Assembly (NCBI RefSeq): GCF_003790525.1
Contig: NZ_CP033636.1
Length of the DNA: 64,000 bases
Reading direction: 5' to 3' (one strand)
From: Escherichia coli
GTDB taxonomy: Bacteria; Pseudomonadota; Gammaproteobacteria; Enterobacterales; Enterobacteriaceae
The position numbers and the translations under genes were made by a program. Shown here one piece after another: positions 15,631-62,322 of the stretch (position 1 is the stretch's first letter; every line of letters begins with the position of its first letter). The notes under the pieces are model-generated. The model was not told the origin of the DNA. It saw only the letters and a list, made by a program, of their open reading frames with translations, and did no database searches.

Positions 15631-16450
15631 GGCACTGTTGCAAATAGTCGGTGGTGATAAACTTATCATCCCCTTTTGCTGATGGAGCTGCACATGAACC
15701 CATTCAAAGGCCGGCATTTTCAGCGTGACATCATTCTGTGGGCCGTACGCTGGTACTGCAAATACGGCATCAGTTACCGTGAGCTGCAGGAGATGCTGGC
15801 TGAACGCGGAGTGAATGTCGATCACTCCACGATTTACCGCTGGGTTCAGCGTTATGCGCCTGAAATGGAAAAACGGCTGCGCTGGTACTGGCGTAACCCT
15901 TCCGATCTTTGCCCGTGGCACATGGATGAAACCTACGTGAAGGTCAATGGCCGCTGGGCGTATCTGTACCGGGCCGTCGACAGCCGGGGCCGCACTGTCG
16001 ATTTTTATCTCTCCTCCCGTCGTAACAGCAAAGCTGCATACCGGTTTCTGGGTAAAATCCTCAACAACGTGAAGAAGTGGCAGATCCCACGATTCATCAA
16101 CACGGATAAAGCGCCCGCCTATGGTCGCGCGCTTGCTCTGCTCAAACGCGAAGGCCGGTGCCCGTCTGACGTTGAACACCGACAGATTAAGTACCGGAAC
16201 AACGTGATTGAATGCGATCATGGCAAACTGAAACGGATAATCAACGCCACGCTGGGATTTAAATCCATGAAGACGGCTTACGCCACCATCAAAGGTATTG
16301 AGGTGATGCGTGCACTACGCAAAGGCCAGGCCTCAGCATTTTATTATGGTGATCCCCTGGGCGAAATGCGCCTGGTAAGCAGAGTTTTTGAAATGTAAGG
16401 CCTTTGAATAAGACAAAAGGCTGCCTCATCGCTAACTTTGCAACAGTGCC
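15631..16450 (+). mobile_element. IS26 copy 4 (820 bp), G184N variant type, flanked by 8-bp direct repeat CTTCTGGT
   Basis: Exact IS26 IRs; 15623-15630 and 16451-16458 both CTTCTGGT (target site duplication of a simple insertion). Confidence 0.95.
15694..16398 (+). CDS. tnpA: IS26 transposase, G184N variant
   Basis: ...[15 protein letters not shown]... Confidence 0.9.
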   Translation: MNPFKGRHFQRDIILWAVRWYCKYGISYRELQEMLAERGVNVDHSTIYRWVQRYAPEMEKRLRWYWRNPSDLCPWHMDETYVKVNGRWAYLYRAVDSRGRTVDFYLSSRRNSKAAYRFLGKILNNVKKWQIPRFINTDKAPAYGRALALLKREGRCPSDVEHRQIKYRNNVIECDHGKLKRIINATLGFKSMKTAYATIKGIEVMRALRKGQASAFYYGDPLGEMRLVSRVFEM

Positions 16451-16559
16451 CTTCTGGTTTCATGTTGAACAAAGAAGACCCTTTAGCTTCTGTAATCCAT
16501 TTAATCAGTCTGAATGAAATAGATTATAAATTCTGCTCTGCATACCTGCTTAACCAAAG

Positions 16560-16930
16560 TCTCATGATTCTGATTGTCGGTACAGTGCCTGAATGTGGCA
16601 TATCTGGGAGGTGCTGTACCCTGTTGCATCTGCCGTTTCTTTCTTGACCTGCCGGTAGTAAAGTACCTTTTGATGCCGTTCCTGAGCGACCTGTTTTCCC
16701 TGATATTTACCCAGCGTATGTGCGAGTTCAACTCCCTGCTTTTGGCGCTGGCGGTCAATTTGCTCGACCAGCAAAATATCATTGCGGTGACTGTCCATCA
16801 GTAAGCGACCCAGTTCCGGTCGGTCAAGTTTTGTACCGCTGATATTCTCCCGGTAGTAACTGGCTATTTTATGCCCCCGCTCCTAAACAAACTGCTCCAG
16901 CATCTCTTTTGCCCGATCGGTGAACTGATC
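16560..16930 (-). pseudogene. degenerate serine recombinase (resolvase-like) remnant upstream of tnpA
   Basis: Minus-strand translation ...YYRENISGTKLDRPELGRLLMDSHRNDILLVEQIDR... resembles the SG.K.DRP.L..LL...GD.LVV..LDRL core of serine recombinases but frame is interrupted. Confidence 0.35.
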
Positions 16931-17133
16931 TTCCGTCTATGCCCTTAAATAAGTGCTGATGAACATTTTTTCACCGCATTACCGCATTTAGGTTATTGCA
17001 TTTAATCTATCGCATATAGGCTATGTCGTTCATTGTGTGCCGTCACGTTTAGATTATGGTGTCAGGGTATACCCTTATGCGATAACCATTTTTGTTAAAA
17101 ATAACGCATCGAATAATTTATGAGGAAAACTAT

Positions 17134-20121
17134 ATGGCAAGGAGGCAGATTCTTTCTCTGTCGGAAAGAGAATCATTACTGGCATTACCGGACGATGAGT
17201 TAACGCTGACCCGAATGGCCTATTTCAGTGAGCATGATCTGGCGCTTATCAGTGCTCACCGTAAACCCGCCAGCCGTTTTGGTTTTGCCGTCCTTCTTTG
17301 CTATCTGAAAAATGTCGGCTTTGCCCCGGATAAAAAAATCTCTCCCTCTGATGCGCTGCTGAAGCATATCGCCAGCAGGCTAAAGCTTACCGGGGATCTC
17401 TGGCCTGCTTACCTTTCCGGCCGGGATACGACCCGGCGTGAGCATTTAACCGAACTGTACCGCTATCTTGGCGTAAAGGCGTTCACCGGCAAAATACAGC
17501 AGGACTGTATTACGCACCTGTTATCGATGGCGACGCGCACCGATAAAGGCATTCTCCTAGCCGAAGAGTTACTTGTCTATCTCCGGCAGAACAACGTGAT
17601 AATCCCCGCGATTGATGTCGTGGAGCGTACCTGTGCTGAAGTCATGGCAGGCGGCGATAAAATCGTATTTCAGACCCTGAATGCCCCGTTAACTCCGGCT
17701 CACAGGGATGCCCTGGATCATTTACTTGAGTCATCAGATAATCAGCCTTCCAGGCTGACATGGCTTCTGCAACCGCCGGGTAAAATCAATGGTAAGAACG
17801 TGCTGCAACATCTTGATCGGCTCAGCAGCATTGAATCGCTGGCATTACCTGAAGGTATAGATCGTACCATTCACCAGAACCGGTTGCTGAAACTGGCGCG
17901 GGAAGGCCGAAAGATGAGTAGCCGGGATTTGACCCGATTTTCAGCTGCCCGGCGTCATGCGATCCTGGTGTGCGTGCTGGAAGAAGCCAGAGCCACACTG
18001 ACAGACGAAGTGATTGAGCTGCATGAGCGAATGCTGAATAGTCTTTTCAGCAAAGCCAAACGAACACAGGCTGAGCGCCTTCAGCAGACCGGAAAGCTGA
18101 TCCAGTCAAAACTGAGGCAGTACATCGATGTCGGTCAGGCGCTGTCTGATGCCCGTGATTCCGGTGGCGATCCCTGGCTCGCAATAGAAAACATACTCCC
18201 ATGGGCTGAATTTGTCGCCAGTCTGGATGAAACACGCCATCTCGCCAGAAAAAATAATTTTGACCCGCTGCATATTATTACCGAGAAATACAGCACATTA
18301 CGGAAATATGCCCCACGCATGTTGTCCGCTTTACAGTTAGTCGCAACCCCGGCAGCGCAACCTCTGGCTGATGCACTGGTTGTGATCAAGGATATGTACC
18401 GGAAGCAGTCACGTAAAGTTCCGGCGGCAGCGCCGCTTGAGTTTGTCCCTGAAAGCTGGCGCAAGGTGGTGATTACACCTGTGGGTATTGACCGGCAGTA
18501 CTATGAGTTTTGTGCACTCAGCGAGCTTAAGGGGGCGTTGCGCTCCGGGGATATCTGGGTTAAAGGCTCGCGCCGCTACAAAAATTTTGATGATTACCTC
18601 ATACCCGAGAAGGACTTTGACAAACTCACACCGGCACTGCCACTGCCCGTATCTGCTGATTATCATGAGTACATTACCAGCCGTATGACCCTGCTTCAGT
18701 CCAGACTTGAAGAGGTCAATGCCATGGCTGCCCTTGGTGAACTGCCCGATGTGGAAATATCCGACAGGGGCGTAAAAGTCTCTCCGCTGGATAACTGCGT
18801 TCCGGCGCAGGTTTCACCGCTGGCAGAGCTGGTTTACAGCATGCTACCGCGACCTAAAATCACGGAAATTCTCGATGAGGTAAACAGCTGGACGACGTTT
18901 ACCCGACATTTTTCGCATATAAAAAATGACATTACCCGTCCCGATACCCGCTTGCTCCTCACCACCATTCTTGCGGATGGCATCAATCTTGGCCTGACCA
19001 AAATGGCAGAAGCCTGCCCCGGGAGCACCAAATCATCACTCGAAGATATTCAGGCATGGTACATCCGTGACGAAACCTATTCAGCCGCTCTTGCAGAGCT
19101 GGTAAATGCGCAGGGGAAAAGACCGTTGGCGGCATTTTGGGGAGACGGAACAACGTCATCATCAGATGGACAAAATTTCAGAACCGGCAGCTCAGGCCGC
19201 TACGCAGGGCAGGTTAACCCGAAATATGGGCAAGAGCCTGGACGTCAGTTTTATACCCATATTTCGGATCAATACAGCCCGTTTTACACCTGCATAATCA
19301 GTCGGGTCAGGGATTCAACCCATGTTCTCGATGGCTTGCTGTACCACGAAAGCGACCTGGAAATCAGGGAACATTACACCGATACCGCTGGTTTCACCGA
19401 TCATGTCTTTGCCCTGATGCATCTGTTGGGATTTGCGTTCTGTCCGCGAATCAGGGATCTCCACGACAAAAAACTGTTTATCAAAGGGAAAGCAGAGAAA
19501 TACCCGGCGCTTCAGTCACTGATATCAACGACCAGCCTGAATCTGAAAGAGATCGAAATCCACTGGCGTGAAGTGCTGCGTCTGGCAACCTCGATAAAGC
19601 AGGGAACCGTGACGGCATCCCTGATGCTGAAAAAGCTTGCCAGCTATCCCAAGCAAAACGGACTTGCCAAAGCACTGAGAGAAATTGGCCGCATTGAGCG
19701 AACCCTGTTTATGCTCGACTGGTTCCGCGACCCGGCTCTGCGTCGGCGGGTACAGGCGGGGCTGAATAAAGGCGAAGCCCGTAACGCGCTGGCGCGTGCG
19801 GTATTTATGCACCGACTGGGAGAAATCAGGGACAGAAAACCGGAAAATCAGAGCTATCGCGCCAGTGGACTGACGCTGCTGACGGCTGCCATATCCCTGT
19901 GGAATACCGTCTATATGGAAAGAGCGGTCGATGCCCTGAAGCGTAAAGGGGTGAAGATCAACGAGCAACTGCTGTCGCATTTGTCGCCGTTGGGCTGGGA
20001 ACACATCAATCTGACAGGTGATTATATCTGGAAAAGCAACCGGATACCGGCTTCTGGTAAGTTTCGTCGGCTAAGACCAGCTAAAGTCGAAAGGTCAAAA
20101 AACAGCCTTAACGTACAATAA
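17134..20121 (+). CDS. tnpA: Tn3-family (Tn21-subgroup-like) transposase TnpA, apparently intact
   Basis: 995-aa [44 protein letters not shown]... to ...[45 protein letters not shown]; SD GAGGA upstream; stop inside 38-bp IR. Confidence 0.9.
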   Translation: MARRQILSLSERESLLALPDDELTLTRMAYFSEHDLALISAHRKPASRFGFAVLLCYLKNVGFAPDKKISPSDALLKHIASRLKLTGDLWPAYLSGRDTTRREHLTELYRYLGVKAFTGKIQQDCITHLLSMATRTDKGILLAEELLVYLRQNNVIIPAIDVVERTCAEVMAGGDKIVFQTLNAPLTPAHRDALDHLLESSDNQPSRLTWLLQPPGKINGKNVLQHLDRLSSIESLALPEGIDRTIHQNRLLKLAREGRKMSSRDLTRFSAARRHAILVCVLEEARATLTDEVIELHERMLNSLFSKAKRTQAERLQQTGKLIQSKLRQYIDVGQALSDARDSGGDPWLAIENILPWAEFVASLDETRHLARKNNFDPLHIITEKYSTLRKYAPRMLSALQLVATPAAQPLADALVVIKDMYRKQSRKVPAAAPLEFVPESWRKVVITPVGIDRQYYEFCALSELKGALRSGDIWVKGSRRYKNFDDYLIPEKDFDKLTPALPLPVSADYHEYITSRMTLLQSRLEEVNAMAALGELPDVEISDRGVKVSPLDNCVPAQVSPLAELVYSMLPRPKITEILDEVNSWTTFTRHFSHIKNDITRPDTRLLLTTILADGINLGLTKMAEACPGSTKSSLEDIQAWYIRDETYSAALAELVNAQGKRPLAAFWGDGTTSSSDGQNFRTGSSGRYAGQVNPKYGQEPGRQFYTHISDQYSPFYTCIISRVRDSTHVLDGLLYHESDLEIREHYTDTAGFTDHVFALMHLLGFAFCPRIRDLHDKKLFIKGKAEKYPALQSLISTTSLNLKEIEIHWREVLRLATSIKQGTVTASLMLKKLASYPKQNGLAKALREIGRIERTLFMLDWFRDPALRRRVQAGLNKGEARNALARAVFMHRLGEIRDRKPENQSYRASGLTLLTAAISLWNTVYMERAVDALKRKGVKINEQLLSHLSPLGWEHINLTGDYIWKSNRIPASGKFRRLRPAKVERSKNSLNVQ

Positions 20122-20144
20122 TTTTCGATATCCAAACTGACCCC
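20107..20144 (-). repeat. 38-bp Tn3-family terminal inverted repeat belonging to the tnpA at 17134-20121
   Basis: Reverse complement GGGGTCAGTTTGGATATCGAAAATTATTGTACGTTAAG; differs from the Tn3, Tn21, Tn1721 and Tn5393 repeats present elsewhere in the window. Confidence 0.75.
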
Positions 20145-32088: not shown

Positions 32089-32126
32089 GGGGAGCCCGCA
32101 GAATTCGGAAAAAATCGTACGCTAAG
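32089..32126 (+). repeat. Tn1721 38-bp terminal inverted repeat
   Basis: GGGGAGCCCGCAGAATTCGGAAAAAATCGTACGCTAAG. Confidence 0.9.
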
Positions 32127-40908: not shown

Positions 40909-40928
40909 CCACATTTTTGCAACAGTGC
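40909..40928 (+). repeat. orphan IS6-family (IS26-like) terminal repeat
   Basis: CACATTTTTGCAACAGTGCC, ending in the exact 14-bp IS26 IR TTTGCAACAGTGCC with diverged subterminal sequence; no adjacent IS body. Confidence 0.4.
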
Positions 40929-41176
40929 CTTATAAATGGCAGCCTTATGTTTACTTGCCAAGATGGGCTACCATATGATGTTTTATACTGAGCAATATTA
41001 ATATTATCTTTAATGGAAAAATTAAGCCCACTAAGTGACCCACTGCTATATGGCTCTATTGTGAAGACGCCTGAGGGTAAAAATTTATACATGGTTGTCC
41101 CTATGTCTATTATTGCAAGGTTGACAATATTATTCGTTTTATAAATTTGAGCGTTTAAAATCACACATCAAAGCAA

Positions 41177-55547: not shown

Positions 55548-56366
55548 GGCACTGTTGCAAATAACCACGAATGGTAAGCTGAAGACTGTTTTAGCTAAAG
55601 GTGCAGCATATGAATCCTTTCCATGGTCGGCATTTTCAGGGCGAAATCATTCTTTGGGCTGTGCGCTGGTATTGTAAATATGGCATTAGCTATCGTGAAC
55701 TGCAGGAAATGCTGGCCGAACGGGGTGTGAATGTTGATCACACGACTATTTACCGTTGGGTTCAACGTTATGCTCCTGAAATAGAAAAACGTTTACGCTG
55801 GTATTGGCGTAATCCTACAGATCTGAGCTCGTGGCATATTGATGAAACCTATGTAAAAGTGAATGGACGATGGTCTTATCTGTATCGTGCAGTCGATCAA
55901 CGTGGCGATACCATTGATTTTTATCTTTCTTCTAGACGTAATACCAAATCAGCATATTGTTTTCTTGGAAAAATTTTAAATAATGTGAAGAAGTGGCAAA
56001 TTCCACAAGTGATCAACACGGATAAAGCACCCACATATGGACGTGCTTTATCACGGTTAAAACGGGAAGGTAAATGTCCACCAGACCTTGAGCACAGGCA
56101 GATTAAGTATAAAAATAACGTGATTGAATGTGATCATGGCAAGCTAAAGCGGATCATCAGGGCCACATTAGGATTCAAATCTATGAAGACGGCTTATGCC
56201 ACAATTAAAGGTATTGAAGTCATGCGTGCACTACGTAAAGGACAAGCATCGTCATTTTATTATGGTCAGCCTCAGGGTGAAGTGTGTCTAATCAACAGGG
56301 TTTTCGGTCTCTAAGTACTTTTTAAAGGGAACATCATCGACTCAAATCTCTATTTGCAACAGTGCC
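55548..56366 (+). mobile_element. IS6-family element, IS1006/IS1008-like (819 bp), sharing the IS26 14-bp terminal repeat
   Basis: Ends GGCACTGTTGCAAATAACC... / ...TTTGCAACAGTGCC; internal sequence and transposase clearly diverged from IS26. Confidence 0.8.
55610..56314 (+). CDS. tnpA: IS1006-like transposase (IS6 family)
   Basis: [105 protein letters not shown]... Confidence 0.85.
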   Translation: MNPFHGRHFQGEIILWAVRWYCKYGISYRELQEMLAERGVNVDHTTIYRWVQRYAPEIEKRLRWYWRNPTDLSSWHIDETYVKVNGRWSYLYRAVDQRGDTIDFYLSSRRNTKSAYCFLGKILNNVKKWQIPQVINTDKAPTYGRALSRLKREGKCPPDLEHRQIKYKNNVIECDHGKLKRIIRATLGFKSMKTAYATIKGIEVMRALRKGQASSFYYGQPQGEVCLINRVFGL

Positions 56367-56400
56367 AAAAAAACCAACTTCAAGTTGGTTTTTCTTTTTT
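56367..56400. terminator. bidirectional rho-independent terminator-like hairpin
   Basis: AAAAAAACCAACTT-C-AAGTTGGTTTTTCTTTTTT: 9-bp stem flanked by A-run and T-run. Confidence 0.5.
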
Positions 56401-56731
56401 AATCATCAGTGGCGACCTTAACACCATATCCAATTAAACCTGCAAGGCTAGCATAGGCTATTTTGGCATAAATCGAACCCCACCAGACCGTAATTTTACT
56501 GGCACCAAATTCCCGAACCGTTTGCCCCATAAAATTAGTGGTTTCATAGAAATTTTTAGCAGAATAACCTAACGCAATATGATCAAGGACAGGGAATAAA
56601 CTAAAAGCTAAACCTACTGCTGCTGCGGGGAAAGTAAACTCTCTTGATAGACCGAATTTTCCAGTAATAAATACAAGCGATACCACGATAATTAATCTAA
56701 TGATAGTCCATAGCATCACTGTGAAAGGCAA
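56399..56731 (-). CDS. hypothetical small membrane protein (110 aa)
   Basis: Hydrophobic N-terminal helices; ORF only. Confidence 0.35.
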   Translation of the reverse strand: MPFTVMLWTIIRLIIVVSLVFITGKFGLSREFTFPAAAVGLAFSLFPVLDHIALGYSAKNFYETTNFMGQTVREFGASKITVWWGSIYAKIAYASLAGLIGYGVKVATDD

Positions 56732-56797
56732 GTTAAAGATGCCTGCTCCCTGCCACGCAAGACCGCAAACAACTAGGGGTCGTCTCAGAAAACGGAA

Positions 56798-58124
56798 TCT
56801 ATGGTCACTCCCGTTTTTGCAACACCGATTTTGACGACAAGTTGGCTTGCTTGAATCTATCCGGCGTCTGAATGGGATTTTATTCCCGCGCCTCGATGAG
56901 TTCCGCGCCTGATGAACCTCCAGAAAATATACGGCTTCAATGAGCCTTTCCGTTTTACAGGTTCCTCAACAGGCCGGTGGGCCGTTAGTATCATCAATAT
57001 CAGTATTCGCAAAACCAGATGAATGATTGTTTAAACTGGTGTATTTCTGCCTTTATGCTTCGTAAGTTTGCTGTCGCGCCGTCAGTGCCCAGGCTATTCT
57101 GGCCAGCTTGTTTGCCAGAGCACAGGTGACGACAAAGTTGCTTTTCCGACACAACAACTCCCTGACCCAGTCGGCCAACTTGCCAGACTGGTGTTCCAGT
57201 TTTTGTATGAATACCCTGGCACACTGAACCAACAAAGTTCGGATCTTTTTGTTGCCCCGCTTGCTAATCCCTAACAATGTCGTCCGACCTCCCGTGCTGT
57301 ACTGTCGGGGTACCAGCCCTGTTGCCGCCGCAAAGTCACGGCTGCTGGCGTACTGCTTCCCGTCGCCAATCTCAGTTGAAATAGTACTGGCAGTCAGCGT
57401 TCCAACGCAGGGAATACTCAGCAAGCGCTGTCCAACCTCATCTTCGTCCAACTTTCGTTTCAACTGAGATTCCAGATCTTTAATCTGCTCAACAAGATAG
57501 TGATAATGCTGTTGTAATTTCAGCAGTAACTGGCTGAGATAAAGAGGCAAACTACTGTCCTCAAGAAGGGTACTCAGTCGACTAATAACGGCAGCACCTC
57601 GCGGAACGCTGATACCAAATTCCAGCAGAAAAGCATGCATCTGATTAGTTGTTTTCACCTTATCCTGAACCAGGGATTCACGGACACGATGCAGAGCTCG
57701 CATTGCCTGCTGAGATTCGGTTCTGGGCTGCACGAAACGCATAGATGGACGTGATGCTGCTTCACAGATAGCTTCAGCATCAACGAAGTCATTTTTGTTG
57801 CTTTTAACGAATGGGCGGACAAATTGCGGTGATATCAGCTTTGGAAAATGCCCTAACTCTTCCAGCTTGCGTGCCATAAAGTGAGAACCGCCACAGGCTT
57901 CCATCGCGATGGTTGTTGCCGGGCATGTCGCCAGAAATTCGATTAGCTTTGGTCGGGTGAATTTTTTACGGTAAACGGCCTTCCCACGATGATCCTGACA
58001 ATGAATATGGAAAGAGTTCTTACCCAGATCGATACCAATAAGCGCAATGTTTTCCATGATGGTTCTCCGAATGAAAGCCTGTCCTCAGCATAGTACTGGG
58101 AAGGAGGGAGTGACCATCTCATTA
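56798..58124 (-). mobile_element. IS4321/IS5075-like element (IS110 family, 1327 bp) inserted in the 38-bp IR of a Tn21-family transposon
   Basis: Interrupts GGGGTCGTCTCAGAAAACGGAA (56776-56797) | AATAAAGCACGCTAAG (58125-58140), the Tn21 IRtnp; 1327-bp length matches IS4321/IS5075. Confidence 0.85.
57053..58057 (-). CDS. IS110-family transposase (IS4321/IS5075 type)
   Basis: 334-aa MENIALIGIDLGKNSFHIHCQDHRGKAVYRKKFTRPKLIEFLATCPATTIAMEACGGSHFMARKLEELGH... Confidence 0.85.
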   Translation of the reverse strand: MENIALIGIDLGKNSFHIHCQDHRGKAVYRKKFTRPKLIEFLATCPATTIAMEACGGSHFMARKLEELGHFPKLISPQFVRPFVKSNKNDFVDAEAICEAASRPSMRFVQPRTESQQAMRALHRVRESLVQDKVKTTNQMHAFLLEFGISVPRGAAVISRLSTLLEDSSLPLYLSQLLLKLQQHYHYLVEQIKDLESQLKRKLDEDEVGQRLLSIPCVGTLTASTISTEIGDGKQYASSRDFAAATGLVPRQYSTGGRTTLLGISKRGNKKIRTLLVQCARVFIQKLEHQSGKLADWVRELLCRKSNFVVTCALANKLARIAWALTARQQTYEA

Positions 58125-58135
58125 AATAAAGCACG

Positions 58136-61087
58136 CTAAGCCGGTTGCAGAGGCCGTAGCGGCCTGAACTTCCCCGCGCCGATCTTGGCGCTGCTGCGCC
58201 ATAGGTAATCACCGGTCAGGTTGATGTGCTCCCAGCCGAGTGGCGACAGGTACTGCAATAGCGAGTCATCGACGGCATGACCATTGCCGCGCAACGCATG
58301 CGCCGCACGCTCCAGGTAGACCGTGTTCCACAGCACGATGGCCGCCGTCACCAGGTTGAGGCCGCTGGCCCGGTAGCGCTGCTGCTCGAAACTGCGGTCA
58401 CGGATTTCACCAAGGCGGTTGAAGAACACGGCACGGGCCAGCGCATTGCGCGCCTCGCCCTTGTTCAGCCCGGCATGCACGCGGCGGCGTAGCTCGACGC
58501 TTTGCAGCCAGTCGAGGATGAACAGCGTGCGCTCGATGCGGCCCAACTCGCGCAGCGCGACGGCCAAGCCGTTCTGGCGCGGGTAGCTGCCGAGTTTCCT
58601 GAGCATCAGCGAGGCCGTCACCGTGCCCTGCTTGATCGAGGTGGCCAGCCGCAGGATTTCGTCCCAATGGGCGCGGACGTGCTTGATGTTGAGCGTGCCG
58701 CCGATCATCGGCTTGAGCGCGTCATAGGCGGCATCGCCCTTCGGGATGTAGAGCTTGGTGTCGCCCAGGTCGCGGATGCGCGGCGCGAAGCGGAAGCCCA
58801 AGAGGTGCATCAGGGCGAAGACGTGATCGGTGAAGCCCGCCGTGTCGGTGTAGTGCTCCTCGATCCGCAGGTCGGATTCGTGGTACAGCAGGCCGTCGAG
58901 CACGTAGGTTGAGTCGCGCAGGCCGACATTGACCACCTTGGTGTGGAATGGCGCGTATTGGTCGGAGATGTGGGTGTAGAAAGTCCGTCCTGGGCTGCTG
59001 CCATATTTTGGGTTGATGTGCCCCGTGCTCTTTGCCTTGCTAGCGGTTCGGAAATTCTGTCCGTCCGATGATGATGTGGTGCCATCGCCCCAGTGCCCGG
59101 CAAAGGGATGCCGAAACTGAGCGTTGACCAGTTCAGCCAACGCTGTCGAGTACGTTTCGTCGCGGGTATGCCAGGCTTGCAGCCAAGCGAGCTTCGCGTA
59201 GGTCGTGCCGGGGCAGGACTCGGCCATCTTGGTCAGGCCCAGGTTGATCGCGTCGGCCAGGATCGTGGTCAACAACAGGTTCTTGTCCTTGGCCAGATCG
59301 CCCGATTTCAAGTGCGTGAAGTGCCGGGTGAAGCCCGTCCACTCATCGACTTCGAGCAGCAGTTCGGTGATCTTGACGTGCGGCAGGACCATGGCTGTCT
59401 GGTCTATCAGCGCCTGCGCGGTGTCGGGCACCGCCGCATCCAGCGGCGTGATCTTCAAGCCCGACTCGGTGATGATGGCATCCGGCAGGTCGTTGGCTGC
59501 CGCCATGCGGTTGACGGTGGCAAGTTGTGCTTCCAGCAGCGTCAGCCGCTCATGCAGATATTGTTCGCAGTCGGTGGCCACGGCCAGCGGCAATTCGCTG
59601 GACTGCTTGAGGCTGGTGAACTTCTCGGGCGGTACCAGGTAGTCCTCGAAGTCCTTGAACTGGCGTGAACCCTGCACCCAGATGTCGCCCGAGCGCAGGG
59701 AGTTCTTCAACTCGGACAGCGCGCACAGTTCGTAGTAGCGCCGGTCGATGCCGGCGTCGGTCATCACCAGTTTCTGCCAGCGCGGCTTGATGAAGCCGGT
59801 CGGTGCATCGGCTGGCAGCTTGCGGGCGTTGTCGGTGTTCATGCCGCGCAGCACCTCAATGGCATCAAGCACGTTTTTGGCGGCGGGCGCGGCCCGCAGC
59901 TTGAGCACGGCAAGGAATTCCGGTGCATAGCGGCGCAGGGTGGCGTAGCTCTCGCCGATGCGATGCAGGAAATCGAAGTCATCGGGTTGCGCGAGCTTCT
60001 GCGCCTCGGTGACGCTCTCGGCAAAGGAATCCCAGGACATGACGGCCTCGATGGCGGCAAACGCATCGCGGCCTGATTGCTTGGCGTCGATCAGCGCCTG
60101 ACCGATGCGCCCGTACAGACGTACCTTGGCGTTGATGGCCTTGCCTGACGCCTGGAACTGCTGCTGATGCTTATTCTTGGCAGCGTTAAACAGCTTACCC
60201 AGGATGCGGTCGTGCAGGTCGATGATTTCGTCGGTGACGGTGGCCAGCGCCACGAGAGTGGCGTAGCGCCGTTGCGGCTCGAATTTGGCCAGGTCGGCGG
60301 GTGTCATCTGGCCGCCCTCGCGGGCAATCTTGAGCAGGCGGTTCTGGTGAACCAGCCGCTCGATGCCGGTAGGCAGATCGAGTGCCTGCCATGCCTTGAG
60401 GCGTTCGATGTGTTCCAGCATATGCCGCGAATTTGGCTTGGCCGGAGACTGGCGCAACCAAGCCAACCAGGTCGTCTTGCCGTTGTCCCGGCGCTTGAGC
60501 AGATCGTCGAGGCGGCGGCGATGCGCGTCCGCCAGTGGTTCGGCCAAGGCGTCGTAGATGCGCCGGTTAGCACGGGTGATCGCCTCGGCACTCGCCCGCT
60601 CGACGGCGTTGAGGGCGGGCAGAATGACCGACTGCCGCCGCAGGTGCCCGATCAAGGCGCTGGCCAGCACGATGCCTTTGTCGGTTTGCATCGCCAGCTC
60701 GGTCAGCATCTGGACGGCCTGCCGGTAATGGCTCATGGTGAAGGGCCGGAAACCGAACACGGTTTGCAGCTCGCTCAGGTGCTCGCGCCGGGTCTGCTCC
60801 CGCTGGCCGTACTCGTTCCAGCTTTCGACGCCGACCTTGAGCTGGTCGGCGACCAGCTTCAACAAGGGCGGGAACGGTAGTTCATCGACGCCCAGGATGA
60901 CGCCGGGAAAGCGCAGGTAACAGAGCTGCACCGCGAAGCCCAGCCGATTGGCTGGCCCGCGCCGCTGTCGGATGATCGAGAGGTCGGTATCGTTGAATGT
61001 GTAATGTCGGATCAGGTCGTCCTTGGAGTCCGGCAACGCCAGCAGGCTTTCCCGCTCGGCGGCGGACAGGATGGAACGACGTGGCAT
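58136..61087 (-). CDS. tnpA: Tn21-family transposase TnpA
   Basis: 983-aa [66 protein letters not shown]...; stop within IRtnp. Confidence 0.9.
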
Positions 61088-61089
61088 AT

Positions 61090-61502
61090 TTACTGATCCG
61101 TTCTCAAGTATTGATACAGGGTTTCGCGACTGATTCCGAATTCACGAGCAAGCTTGGTCTTTTGCTCGCCAGCCTCGACACGTTGGCGCAGTTCGGCAAT
61201 ACGCTCAGACGACAGGGATTTCTTCCTGCCACGGTAAGCCCCGCGTTGCTTGGCGAGCGCAATACCCTCGCGCTGACGCTCGCGGATCAGGGCGCGCTCG
61301 AACTCGGCGAACGCGCCCATCACCGAGAGCATCAGGTTCGCCATCGGAGAGTCTTCGCCAGTAAAACTGAGGTGTTCCTTGACGAATTCGATATGCACGC
61401 CGCGTTGTGTCAGCGTTTGCACGATCCGGCGCAAATCATCGAGATTGCGCGCCAGGCGATCCATGCTATGCACCACCACGGTGTCGCCGGTGCGGGCGAA
61501 GC
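61090..61502 (-). pseudogene. tnpR: Tn21-family resolvase tnpR, 5'-truncated by IS26
   Basis: ...FARTGDTVVVHSMDRLARNLDDLRRIVQTLTQRGVHIEFVKEHLSFTGEDSPMANLMLSVMGAFAEFERALIRERQREGIALAKQRG...YLRTDQ. Confidence 0.85.
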
Positions 61503-62322
61503 GGCACTGTTGCAAATAGTCGGTGGTGATAAACTTATCATCCCCTTTTGCTGATGGAGCTGCACATGAACCCATTCAAAGGCCGGCATTTTCAGCGTGA
61601 CATCATTCTGTGGGCCGTACGCTGGTACTGCAAATACGGCATCAGTTACCGTGAGCTGCAGGAGATGCTGGCTGAACGCGGAGTGAATGTCGATCACTCC
61701 ACGATTTACCGCTGGGTTCAGCGTTATGCGCCTGAAATGGAAAAACGGCTGCGCTGGTACTGGCGTAACCCTTCCGATCTTTGCCCGTGGCACATGGATG
61801 AAACCTACGTGAAGGTCAATGGCCGCTGGGCGTATCTGTACCGGGCCGTCGACAGCCGGGGCCGCACTGTCGATTTTTATCTCTCCTCCCGTCGTAACAG
61901 CAAAGCTGCATACCGGTTTCTGGGTAAAATCCTCAACAACGTGAAGAAGTGGCAGATCCCACGATTCATCAACACGGATAAAGCGCCCGCCTATGGTCGC
62001 GCGCTTGCTCTGCTCAAACGCGAAGGCCGGTGCCCGTCTGACGTTGAACACCGACAGATTAAGTACCGGAACAACGTGATTGAATGCGATCATGGCAAAC
62101 TGAAACGGATAATCAACGCCACGCTGGGATTTAAATCCATGAAGACGGCTTACGCCACCATCAAAGGTATTGAGGTGATGCGTGCACTACGCAAAGGCCA
62201 GGCCTCAGCATTTTATTATGGTGATCCCCTGGGCGAAATGCGCCTGGTAAGCAGAGTTTTTGAAATGTAAGGCCTTTGAATAAGACAAAAGGCTGCCTCA
62301 TCGCTAACTTTGCAACAGTGCC
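61503..62322 (+). mobile_element. IS26 copy 7 (820 bp), G184N variant type
   Basis: Exact IS26 IRs; flanks ggcgaagc / aatcttcc. Confidence 0.95.
61566..62270 (+). CDS. tnpA: IS26 transposase, G184N variant
   Basis: ...[15 protein letters not shown]... Confidence 0.9.
   Translation: MNPFKGRHFQRDIILWAVRWYCKYGISYRELQEMLAERGVNVDHSTIYRWVQRYAPEMEKRLRWYWRNPSDLCPWHMDETYVKVNGRWAYLYRAVDSRGRTVDFYLSSRRNSKAAYRFLGKILNNVKKWQIPRFINTDKAPAYGRALALLKREGRCPSDVEHRQIKYRNNVIECDHGKLKRIINATLGFKSMKTAYATIKGIEVMRALRKGQASAFYYGDPLGEMRLVSRVFEM

Follow-up and report, generated by a model that had tools for sequence, protein, structure and literature searches.

IS5075 in the end repeat of a Tn21 remnant

The window, a stretch of 64,000 nucleotides of Escherichia coli DNA (contig NZ_CP033636.1), contains a Tn21 remnant that lies in the resistance region of an IncHI2-type multidrug-resistance plasmid. 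The IRtnp of this remnant is split by a complete copy of IS5075 (1327 bp, 56798-58124), which carries its transposase gene on the minus strand (Table 1). The outer part of the repeat, GGGGTCGTCTCAGAAAACGGAA, and the inner part, AATAAAGCACGCTAAG, give the exact 38-bp Tn21 IRtnp when joined; the uninterrupted IRtnp of R100 is at NC_002134 19693-19730. After removal of the element in silico, 56776-61502 aligned to Tn21 of R100 (NC_002134 16316-19730) with 0 mismatches in 3400 bp, the sole difference being one 15-bp deletion inside tnpA, which is in frame (60246|60247), shortens TnpA by 5 residues (983 versus 988 aa) and lies between 9-bp direct repeats. Because removing the IS restores the R100 sequence exactly, the insertion has no target-site duplication and the match is beyond chance. 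The outer half-repeat is of the IRtnp type; IRmer of Tn21 differs from it at three of positions 5-8 (GGGGGCACCTCAG...).

The original prediction of a 38-bp IR split into 22 + 16 bp proved to be exact, with a junction ambiguity of only 1 bp. Since the A at 56797 equals the A at 58124, a 21+17 split is formally equivalent to 22+16 (16+22), which is the convention in the literature (PMC5725488). The element was also predicted to occupy the canonical position in Tn21-family repeats, and the same position is indeed occupied in pRMH760 and is given as 16+22 in the study that sets the convention. All ten copies compared in terminal repeats of the Tn3 family (the window copy, two in R751, three in pRMH760, and L005, L006, L010 and L011) have one orientation, with the left end adjoining the inner part of the repeat. 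We found no other occupied or empty Tn21-type target in a terminal repeat of the window when up to 2 mismatches to the 13-bp core were allowed. At least 2,372 plasmid records contain the 62-bp junction between repeat and IS at ≥99% identity, and the IRtnp/IS5075 junction ranks with the most frequent ones in resistance plasmids. The 10-kb context is shared over ≥80% of its extent by at least 47 plasmid records.

The Tn21 backbone at this locus is a remnant and not a complete Tn21. IRtnp, tnpA and tnpR have the sequence of R100 except for the 15-bp deletion, and the set of res, full-length tnpR, integron In2, mer operon and IRmer that makes up a complete Tn21 is not present. IS26 truncates tnpR, as was originally noticed, with the cut at 61502/61503, and replaces everything beyond it. 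No res, mer or IRmer adjoins the fragment, and no second Tn21-type IR was found in the window with up to 6 mismatches, which together with the deletion in tnpA supports the earlier description of this Tn21 as a fossil. As to nomenclature, we rejected the name TnAs3, the PGAP label for the fragment, since the Tn21 TnpA of R100 itself bears the same label. TnAO22, a name used for a similar block (PMC6052338), and Tn5051 were excluded, as they share only about 90% tnpA identity with Tn21 (PMC2663772).

Table 1. Features of the IS5075 insertion and the adjoining Tn21 remnant (window positions)
Feature	Position	Strand	Remarks
Outer 22 bp of Tn21 IRtnp, GGGGTCGTCTCAGAAAACGGAA	56776-56797	.	Equals R100 19709-19730, reverse complement
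Right-end extension AGA, 3 bp	56798-56800	-	Kept in nearly all relatives
255-bp non-coding region 3' of tnp	56798-57052	-	Predicted source of seekRNA/bridge RNA; consensus structure
Right subterminal inverted repeat, GGGAGTGACCAT	56801-56812	-	12/12 complementary to 58106-58117
TTGCAA, -35 half of putative joined-ends promoter	56817-56822	-	
AUAGAU, candidate donor-binding segment	56855-56860	-	Conserved, single-stranded; equals right/left-end junction ATAGA|T
CUCAU, candidate donor-binding segment	56896-56900	-	Conserved, single-stranded; complementary to ATGAG of left-end extension
AGGUUC, 3' stem half closing predicted target-binding loop	56914-56919	-	
Predicted B guide, UAUUUUC	56923-56929	-	Equals top strand TATT|TTC; pairs with bottom strand across insertion point
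Hairpin between guide segments, GGCUCAUUGAAGCC	56933-56946	-	Stem pairing kept by compensatory changes
Predicted T guide, AAAACGGAAA	56947-56956	-	Complementary to top strand T|TTCCGTTTT across insertion point
GAACCU, 5' stem half closing predicted target-binding loop	56959-56964	-	
IS5075 transposase gene (tnp), 334 aa, intact	57053-58057	-	PF01548 + PF02371
Left subterminal inverted repeat, ATGGTCACTCCC	58106-58117	-	Pairs with 56801-56812
Left-end extension TAATGAG, 7 bp	58118-58124	-	Gives TAAT of circle-junction -10 hexamer
Inner 16 bp of Tn21 IRtnp, AATAAAGCACGCTAAG	58125-58140	.	Overlaps tnpA stop codon
Tn21 tnpA, 983 aa	58136-61087	-	Otherwise 100% identical to R100 tnpA; NF033527, 1313 bits
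Tn21 tnpR remnant, 3' 413/561 bp	61090-61502	-	5' end with catalytic serine region and res gone
IS26 cutting tnpR	61503-62322	+	820 bp; 14-bp terminal repeats, GGCACTGTTGCAAA at both ends

Identity and integrity of the element

The original prediction described a 1327-bp IS110-family element of the IS4321/IS5075 type, to be told apart by alignment to both. Length and family held, and on its sequence features the element is an intact IS5075 of the IS1111 group of the IS110 family, in canonical position and orientation in the Tn21 IRtnp. The transposase contains the domains PF01548 (DEDD_Tnp_IS110, 74 bits) and PF02371 (72 bits) and scored 342 bits with NF033542, 'IS110 family RNA-guided transposase' (cut-off 140). 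D10, E53, D90, D93 and S254 were invariant in an alignment of 15 transposase sequences (alignment A1).

The element combines a DEDD transposase with the other traits of the IS1111 group: subterminal repeats in the range of 11-13 bp, extensions of 7 bp at the left and 3 bp at the right end (a criterion taken from PMC11187229), a non-coding region that is longer downstream of tnp (255 bp) than upstream (67 bp), and a site- and orientation-specific insertion with no target duplication. The ends of the IS relatives were fixed by anchoring on ATGG...CCAT. A further trait of the group is a promoter across the joined ends, which at the sequence level consists of TTGCAA and GATAAT separated by 17 nt; such a junction promoter has been described for ISEc11 (PMC11187229). 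In the inserted element, no promoter-like site was found ahead of tnp.

IS4321 shares its length, ends, target and guide loops with the window element, and the transposases are 97.6-98.5% identical. IS4321 in R751 and the two copies in pRMH760 measure 1326-1327 bp, are like IS5075 in ends, target position and orientation, and have T and B loop sequences identical to those of IS5075. At the DNA level, however, the four IS4321 copies (two each in R751 and pRMH760) were only 93.1-93.3% identical to the window element, a difference of about 7%, and IS4321 matches in its subterminal repeats at 11/12 positions versus 12/12 in the window IS5075. In contrast, the pRMH760 copy annotated as IS5075 (NC_023898 134539-135865) was identical at 1327/1327 bases, which leaves no room for an IS4321/IS5075 mosaic. 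The DNA alignments thus refuted IS4321 as the identity of the element, and we assign a vanishingly small probability to IS4321 or a hybrid of the two. The pRMH760 IS5075 also has the same 22|16 position and orientation in the Tn21 IRtnp and differs from the window only in the DNA outside the transposon end and in a tnpA without the 15-bp deletion. At least 3,701 plasmid records match the element at ≥99% identity; in all 30 matches listed the identity was 100%, and most of these are annotated as IS5075. The lack of a promoter ahead of tnp in the inserted element could mean that this IS5075 is a dead, immobile relic, which we consider very unlikely. A missing resident promoter is normal in this family, whose promoter arises where the ends of the circle are joined. 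Moreover, the copy has an intact ORF, perfect subterminal repeats and a complete non-coding region; both the high number of plasmid records and the base-for-base copy in pRMH760 argue against decay, as does the documented activity of IS5075 in outbreak isolates, where ongoing transposition was reported (PMC8269217).

Predicted guide RNA and history of the insertion

The non-coding region downstream of tnp is predicted to give rise to a seekRNA (bridge RNA). The consensus RNA structure built with 43 relatives has 28 pairs, 13 of them with compensatory changes, and RNAfold placed both guide segments in an internal loop. The T segment precedes the B segment and together they span the insertion point, the order described for IS1111-type seekRNAs (PMC11187229). 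A T match of this length across the junction occurred in 13/3000 shuffles and a comparable pair of T and B matches in 3/3000; the B match alone (163/3000) was not significant. We also compared 25 distinct guide pairs from relatives with other targets (61-99% amino-acid identity). The loops matched their own flanks at 9.9/16 informative positions versus 5.5 for the flanks of other elements, and none of 20,000 permutations reached the observed value; where the target of a relative contains a long run of T, the fixed-register T-loop score was modest. A scan of 56500-58400 against Rfam 15 at E≤1 gave no match; hence, no curated bridge RNA or seekRNA family covers the candidate RNA.

Two further segments might bind the donor. 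AUAGAU is a candidate by its match to the junction of the ends, and CUCAU could perhaps have such a role by its complementarity to the left-end extension. A single compensatory case was seen for CUCAU, in the relative L082, where a left end TAATGAA goes with CTTTCAT. Covariation is uninformative for the donor loop because the IS ends are nearly invariant, and both segments are short. The candidate donor-binding nucleotides of IS5075 lie around a multiloop, as was noted for IS1111 members (Durrant et al. 2024, PMC11208160).

We propose the following course of events. IS5075 would excise as a circle with the predicted joined ends ...GACCATAGA|TAATGAGATGG, and end-joining would build the promoter that drives expression of the DEDD transposase and of the 255-nt region downstream. 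This region would fold into a structured RNA, in whose internal loop AAAACGGAAA would pair with the top strand T|TTCCGTTTT and UAUUUUC with the bottom strand of TATT|TTC. Jointly, the two guides would set both position and orientation of an insertion into Tn21-family repeats between bases 22 and 23, with no duplication of the target. For the window copy, the circle, the RNA with its ends and the binding of this RNA by the transposase are inferred from the family.

The proposed RNA has counterparts with experimental support. In ISEc11, ISKpn4, ISPa11 and ISPst6 the RNA is made, is bound by the transposase and is needed for transposition (Siddiquee et al. 2024, PMC11187229). These four elements resemble IS5075 in the downstream non-coding region, the subterminal repeats, the 7-bp and 3-bp extensions and the circle-junction promoter, and also have two short segments, for the top and then the bottom strand, that overlap at the insertion point. 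They differ in their targets and guides, and in that their RNA is experimentally established whereas that of IS5075 is predicted. IS621 of the IS110 group (Durrant et al. 2024, PMC11208160) likewise has a DEDD recombinase and a structured RNA with separate target and donor loops; in IS5075 the donor loop is a candidate feature. However, the RNA of IS621 comes from the left end and its subterminal repeats have 2-3 bp, while the predicted IS5075 RNA comes from the right end and the repeats have 12 bp.

The default view before 2024 was that the transposase reads the DNA of the repeat directly, in which case the matches in the non-coding region would be coincidental, and the B match alone, found in 163/3000 shuffles, would be compatible with this. 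The covariation of loops and flanks over 25 guide pairs (0/20,000 permutations), the conservation of the RNA structure with compensatory changes and the experiments that proved RNA guidance for four further members of the IS1111 group (PMC11187229) make direct reading highly improbable. Hence, a seekRNA encoded in the non-coding region is the likely targeting mechanism of IS5075, and our explanation as a whole, which joins the IS5075 identity, RNA-guided insertion and a lost end function, is held with high confidence. The specific code, in which AAAACGGAAA in the 5' loop and UAUUUUC in the 3' loop read a target of about 13 bp, TATT|TTCCGTTTT, is probably correct for the IS5075/IS4321 clade. 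As to history, recombination between two IS5075 copies could have joined a foreign outer half-repeat and flank to the inner half and tnpA of Tn21; this bears on the history of the junction only and not on the identity of the element. The outer flank is AACAACTA|GGGG here versus CCATAATA|GGGG at the location of Tn21 in R100 and pRMH760, with IS and Tn21 identical, and IS5075 copies are abundant, occurring at >9,700 places among the top 5,000 plasmid records. However, both half-repeats belong to the Tn21 IRtnp type and together restore IRtnp exactly, and the data fit equally well with a history in which Tn21 first transposed to this site and IS5075 inserted later and independently. We regard recombination as unlikely.

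Consequences for Tn21 and for the targeting of IS5075

The split IRtnp should no longer be able to act as an end for transposase binding and cleavage, and it is reasonable to suppose that IS5075 immobilises this end of Tn21. Loss of end function by a split repeat has been asserted previously (PMC5034289). The immobilisation could be reversed by precise excision. For the transposon as a whole the loss of this end is moot, since tnpR has lost its 5' end to IS26, along with res and all that lay further out. IS5075 and the Tn21 fragment would then be carried along passively with the plasmid, as one of its fixed modules.

IS5075 at its usual spot in the end repeat of Tn21 is an already known and very common insertion. 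For annotation, it is a landmark of a Tn21 end that is presumably no longer able to act, and the fixed block of IS1006, IS5075-IRtnp, tnpA, tnpR remnant and IS26 can serve to trace the resistance region among IncHI2 and related plasmids. As an active and, by prediction, RNA-guided element, IS5075 finds a safe harbour in the ends of resistance transposons, which is also already known. Occasionally it hits look-alike sites in chromosomes, for example ureC in K. pneumoniae (PMC8269217).

The explicit guide code for IS5075 and IS4321 is only mildly new, as the general principle was published in 2024; we did not find the code spelled out for IS5075 in the literature examined. If true, it would explain how these elements insert into many different Tn3-family repeats and into look-alike sites (ureC of K. 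pneumoniae, the chromosomal sites of L004 and L007), and why the specificity of relatives such as L011 is shifted.

IS5075 in the IRtnp repeat of Tn21

The original prediction had named an IS110-family element and proposed its alignment to IS4321 and IS5075. The single IS5075-annotated copy of plasmid pRMH760 (NC_023898), which has the same position in Tn21 IRtnp, was identical to the element (1327/1327), whereas the two IS4321 copies of plasmid R751 matched it at 1236/1327 and 1238/1327 positions (93.1% and 93.3%) and the two IS4321 copies of pRMH760 at 1237/1327. Hence, the element is IS5075, and IS4321 was rejected on all four copies. Partridge and Hall reportedly studied pRMH760, from which IS5075 is said to have been first described. 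A megablast search of PLSDB with the element, with counts covering the best 5,000 records, returned at least 3,701 records at ≥99% identity and at least 1,253 further records at 90-95%. The matches listed were 100% identical in 30/30 cases, most of them annotated 'IS5075 family'.

The family assignment was likewise borne out, as the only ORF combines the domains DEDD_Tnp_IS110 and Transposase_20 and matches NCBIfam NF033542 ('IS110 family RNA-guided transposase') with 342 bits. Outside the subterminal repeats lie TAATGAG (7 bp, on the transposase-proximal side) and AGA (3 bp, on the opposite side), and the non-coding DNA comprises 255 bp downstream and 67 bp upstream of the gene. Subterminal repeats, 7-bp/3-bp extensions, and a downstream non-coding region are the hallmarks that Siddiquee et al. 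2024 (PMC11187229) restate for the IS1111 group. In the inserted state we found no sigma-70-like promoter ahead of the transposase gene. Once the right end is joined to the left, the sequence reads TTGCAA, 17 nt, and GATAAT, and ISEc11 is reported to have the same promoter arrangement across its joined ends (PMC11187229).

As an empty-site control we used plasmid R100 (NC_002134), the original Tn21 host. The two half-repeats join to the 38-bp repeat GGGGTCGTCTCAGAAAACGGAAAATAAAGCACGCTAAG. With the 1327 bp removed in silico, positions 56776-61502 aligned to R100 16316-19730 with 0 mismatches over 3400 bp; the match comprises part of tnpR, the whole of tnpA, and an uninterrupted IRtnp (R100 19693-19730), the sole exception being a 15-bp deletion inside tnpA. 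The mer-end repeat (GGGGGCACCTCAG...) differs from the split repeat at three of positions 5-8, and the latter is therefore IRtnp specifically. The insertion duplicated 0 bases of target, and one A common to both junctions (56797 = 58124) leaves the breakpoint uncertain by 1 base. The 22+16 split is also the one described in the literature (PMC5725488). The R100 match thus confirms the earlier observation of a Tn21 38-bp repeat split 22 + 16 bp by a 1327-bp element, and the interpretation finds support, with the element now narrowed down to IS5075.

Features of the window that bear on the IS5075 insertion
Feature	Position (strand)	Length	Remark
IS26 terminal repeats	6121, 9721, 10977, 15631, 42848, 49483, 61503, with partners		
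Tn3-family end repeat	20107-20144 (minus)		GGGGTCAGTTTGGATATCGAAAATTATTGTACGTTAAG, unoccupied
Tn1721/Tn501-type end repeat	32089-32126		GGGGAGCCCGCAGAATTCGGAAAAAATCGTACGCTAAG, without IS5075
Solo IS26 end	40916-40929		
IS1006	55548-56366	819 bp	14-bp terminal repeat shared with IS26
DNA between IS1006 and Tn21 repeat	56367-56775	409 bp	abuts outer end of the repeat
ORF in this segment	56399-56731	110 aa	predicted membrane-like; no Pfam match
Tn21 IRtnp, outer part	56776-56797	22 bp	GGGGTCGTCTCAGAAAACGGAA
IS5075	56798-58124 (minus)	1327 bp	
IS5075 subterminal inverted repeats	56801-56812 / 58106-58117	12 bp	perfect
Predicted B guide (3' loop)	56923-56929		UAUUUUC
Predicted T guide (5' loop)	56947-56956 (minus)		AAAACGGAAA
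IS5075 ORF	58057-57053 (minus)	334 aa	
Tn21 IRtnp, inner part	58125-58140	16 bp	AATAAAGCACGCTAAG
tnpA	58136-61087 (minus)	983 aa	
IS26 truncating tnpR	61503-62322		

Plasmid setting and state of the Tn21 remnant

IRtnp::IS5075 is already known and is among the commonest junctions of resistance plasmids. A 62-bp junction query, made up of the outer half-repeat and 40 bp of IS sequence, hit at least 2,372 plasmid records at ≥99% identity, and all of the best 5,000 records covered at least 80% of it. The entire 64-kb window, with its seven complete IS26 copies, solo IS26 end, and IS1006, is collinear (99.99%) with the IncHI2 plasmid pNDM33-1, whose multiresistance region carries floR, tet(A), blaOXA-10, cmlA5, arr-2, qnrS1, blaTEM-1, aadA22, and lnu(F). 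A block consisting of floR, a truncated IS91-like gene, IS1006, the 409 bp, IS5075-IRtnp, tnpA, the tnpR remnant, and IS26 recurs in farm-animal plasmids of E. coli, Klebsiella, and Salmonella. The IS5075 copy came along with this module and was not freshly inserted. Its outer flank (AACAACTA|GGGG) differs from that of the R100/pRMH760 site (CCATAATA|GGGG). Tn21 may have been at the present site first and then received IS5075 in a separate event, or the flanks may have been swapped when two IS5075 copies recombined. The choice between these histories leaves the identity of the feature unaffected.

IS5075 puts 1.3 kb between the outer 22 bp and the inner 16 bp of the repeat, and such disruption is stated to leave a transposon deficient in further mobilisation (PMC5034289). 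Loss of mobilisation through this Tn21 end can soundly be inferred, and the disruption is in principle reversible by precise excision. The transposon is a remnant irrespective of IS5075: tnpR lacks its first 148 bp, which IS26 has removed along with res and all beyond, and we found no second Tn21-type repeat in the 64-kb window and no mer operon adjoining the Tn21 fragment. Together with the deletion in tnpA, this upholds the prediction of a fossil Tn21 backbone with IS26-truncated tnpR. Compared with R100 Tn21, tnpA has lost 15 bp (TGGCCACCGAGGGCA) in-frame at 60246|60247, a deletion flanked by 9-bp direct repeats (TGGCCACCG) that shortens TnpA from 988 to 983 aa. The 988-aa form is kept in the near-identical pNDM33-1, and the 983-aa form occurs in the Salmonella plasmid pZ1323SSL0063-2. 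The PGAP label 'TnAs3 family' reflects a naming habit, as R100's own Tn21 transposase is labelled likewise, and TnAO22, a name given to a similar block elsewhere, was excluded on account of a tnpA sharing only 90% identity with that of Tn21.

Target choice by IS5075 and its relatives

Work from 2024 showed that IS1111-group elements choose their target by an RNA (seekRNA) from the downstream non-coding region, in which a short segment complementary to the target top strand is followed 3' by a bottom-strand one, the two overlapping at the insertion point (PMC11187229); the related IS621 bridge RNA works in the same way (PMC11208160). With the IS5075 target written in IS orientation (CTTAGCGTGCTTTATT|TTCCGTTTTCTGAGACGACCCC), the T guide is fully complementary to T|TTCCGTTTT, and the B guide, located 27 nt further downstream, reads as TATT|TTC and therefore pairs with the bottom strand. 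Shuffled sequences gave a junction-spanning match of ≥10 nt in 13/3000 cases and a comparable ordered pair in 3/3000. RNAfold placed both guides in one internal loop, with GAACCU/AGGUUC as its closing stem and the hairpin GGCUCAUUGAAGCC between the guides. RNA from this region would read the top strand with its 5' loop and the bottom strand with its 3' loop. A second conserved domain contains single-stranded CUCAUCG and GGAUAGAUU, candidate donor-binding segments by their match to ATGAG at the left end and to ATAGA|T where the joined ends meet; the IS ends are too invariant among relatives for covariation to be informative here. The right end also carries AAAACGG directly inside the subterminal repeat (56811-56817 vs 56950-56956, minus), the same 7-mer as the T guide start and the target bottom strand, which may be chance or have a bearing on donor recognition.

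We compared 80 relatives (61-99% amino-acid identity), drawn from a collection with one genome per species and each bounded by its own subterminal repeats. Their ends, TAATGAG-ATGGTC and GACCAT-AGA, are near-invariant, and the right flank nearly always starts with TT; the targets are otherwise widely different. With the register held fixed, each element's 5' loop is complementary to the right flank of that same element, and its 3' loop equals the left one, as in the relatives at loci L014 (AGCAUGAAAA vs flank TTTTCATGCT; ACACUUUUU vs ACACT|TTTT) and L023 (GGGAGUUUU vs GGGAGT|TTT). Across 25 distinct guide pairs, own flanks matched at 9.9 of 16 informative positions and the flanks of others at 5.5, and permutation reached the observed sum in 0/20,000 trials. 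The consensus structure of 43 aligned distinct non-coding regions has 28 pairs, 13 with compensatory changes, and leaves both guide segments unpaired.

A non-palindromic target read by RNA should be entered in a single orientation, exactly as seen in ten copies in Tn3-family terminal repeats (the window copy, two in R751, three in pRMH760, and the relatives L005, L006, L010, and L011), where the IS left end adjoined the inner part of the repeat in 10/10. IS5075-like copies (98-99% aa) were also observed at look-alike sites other than transposon ends, in the Edwardsiella anguillarum chromosome (L004, CTATATT|TTCTGTTTAAC) and in Serratia marcescens (L007). These sites are not recognisable Tn21-family repeats, yet they keep the core ATATT|TTC(C/T)GTTTA and illustrate off-target use, in agreement with the reported 13-bp target consensus and with ureC as a frequent insertion site in K. 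pneumoniae (PMC8269217). The window itself holds two end repeats free of IS5075, a Tn1721/Tn501-type one that deviates at several positions from the core matched by the guides and a Tn3-family one similar to the target of L011. This Serratia relative (89% aa) has loops (UAUCGGAAU / AUAAUUUUUC) that depart from those of IS5075 in a way matching its target, which looks like a natural switch of target to a different repeat family. The guide loops assigned here for the IS5075 clade are a modest side result, the principle having been published in 2024; RNA-guided target choice is most likely how IS5075 works.
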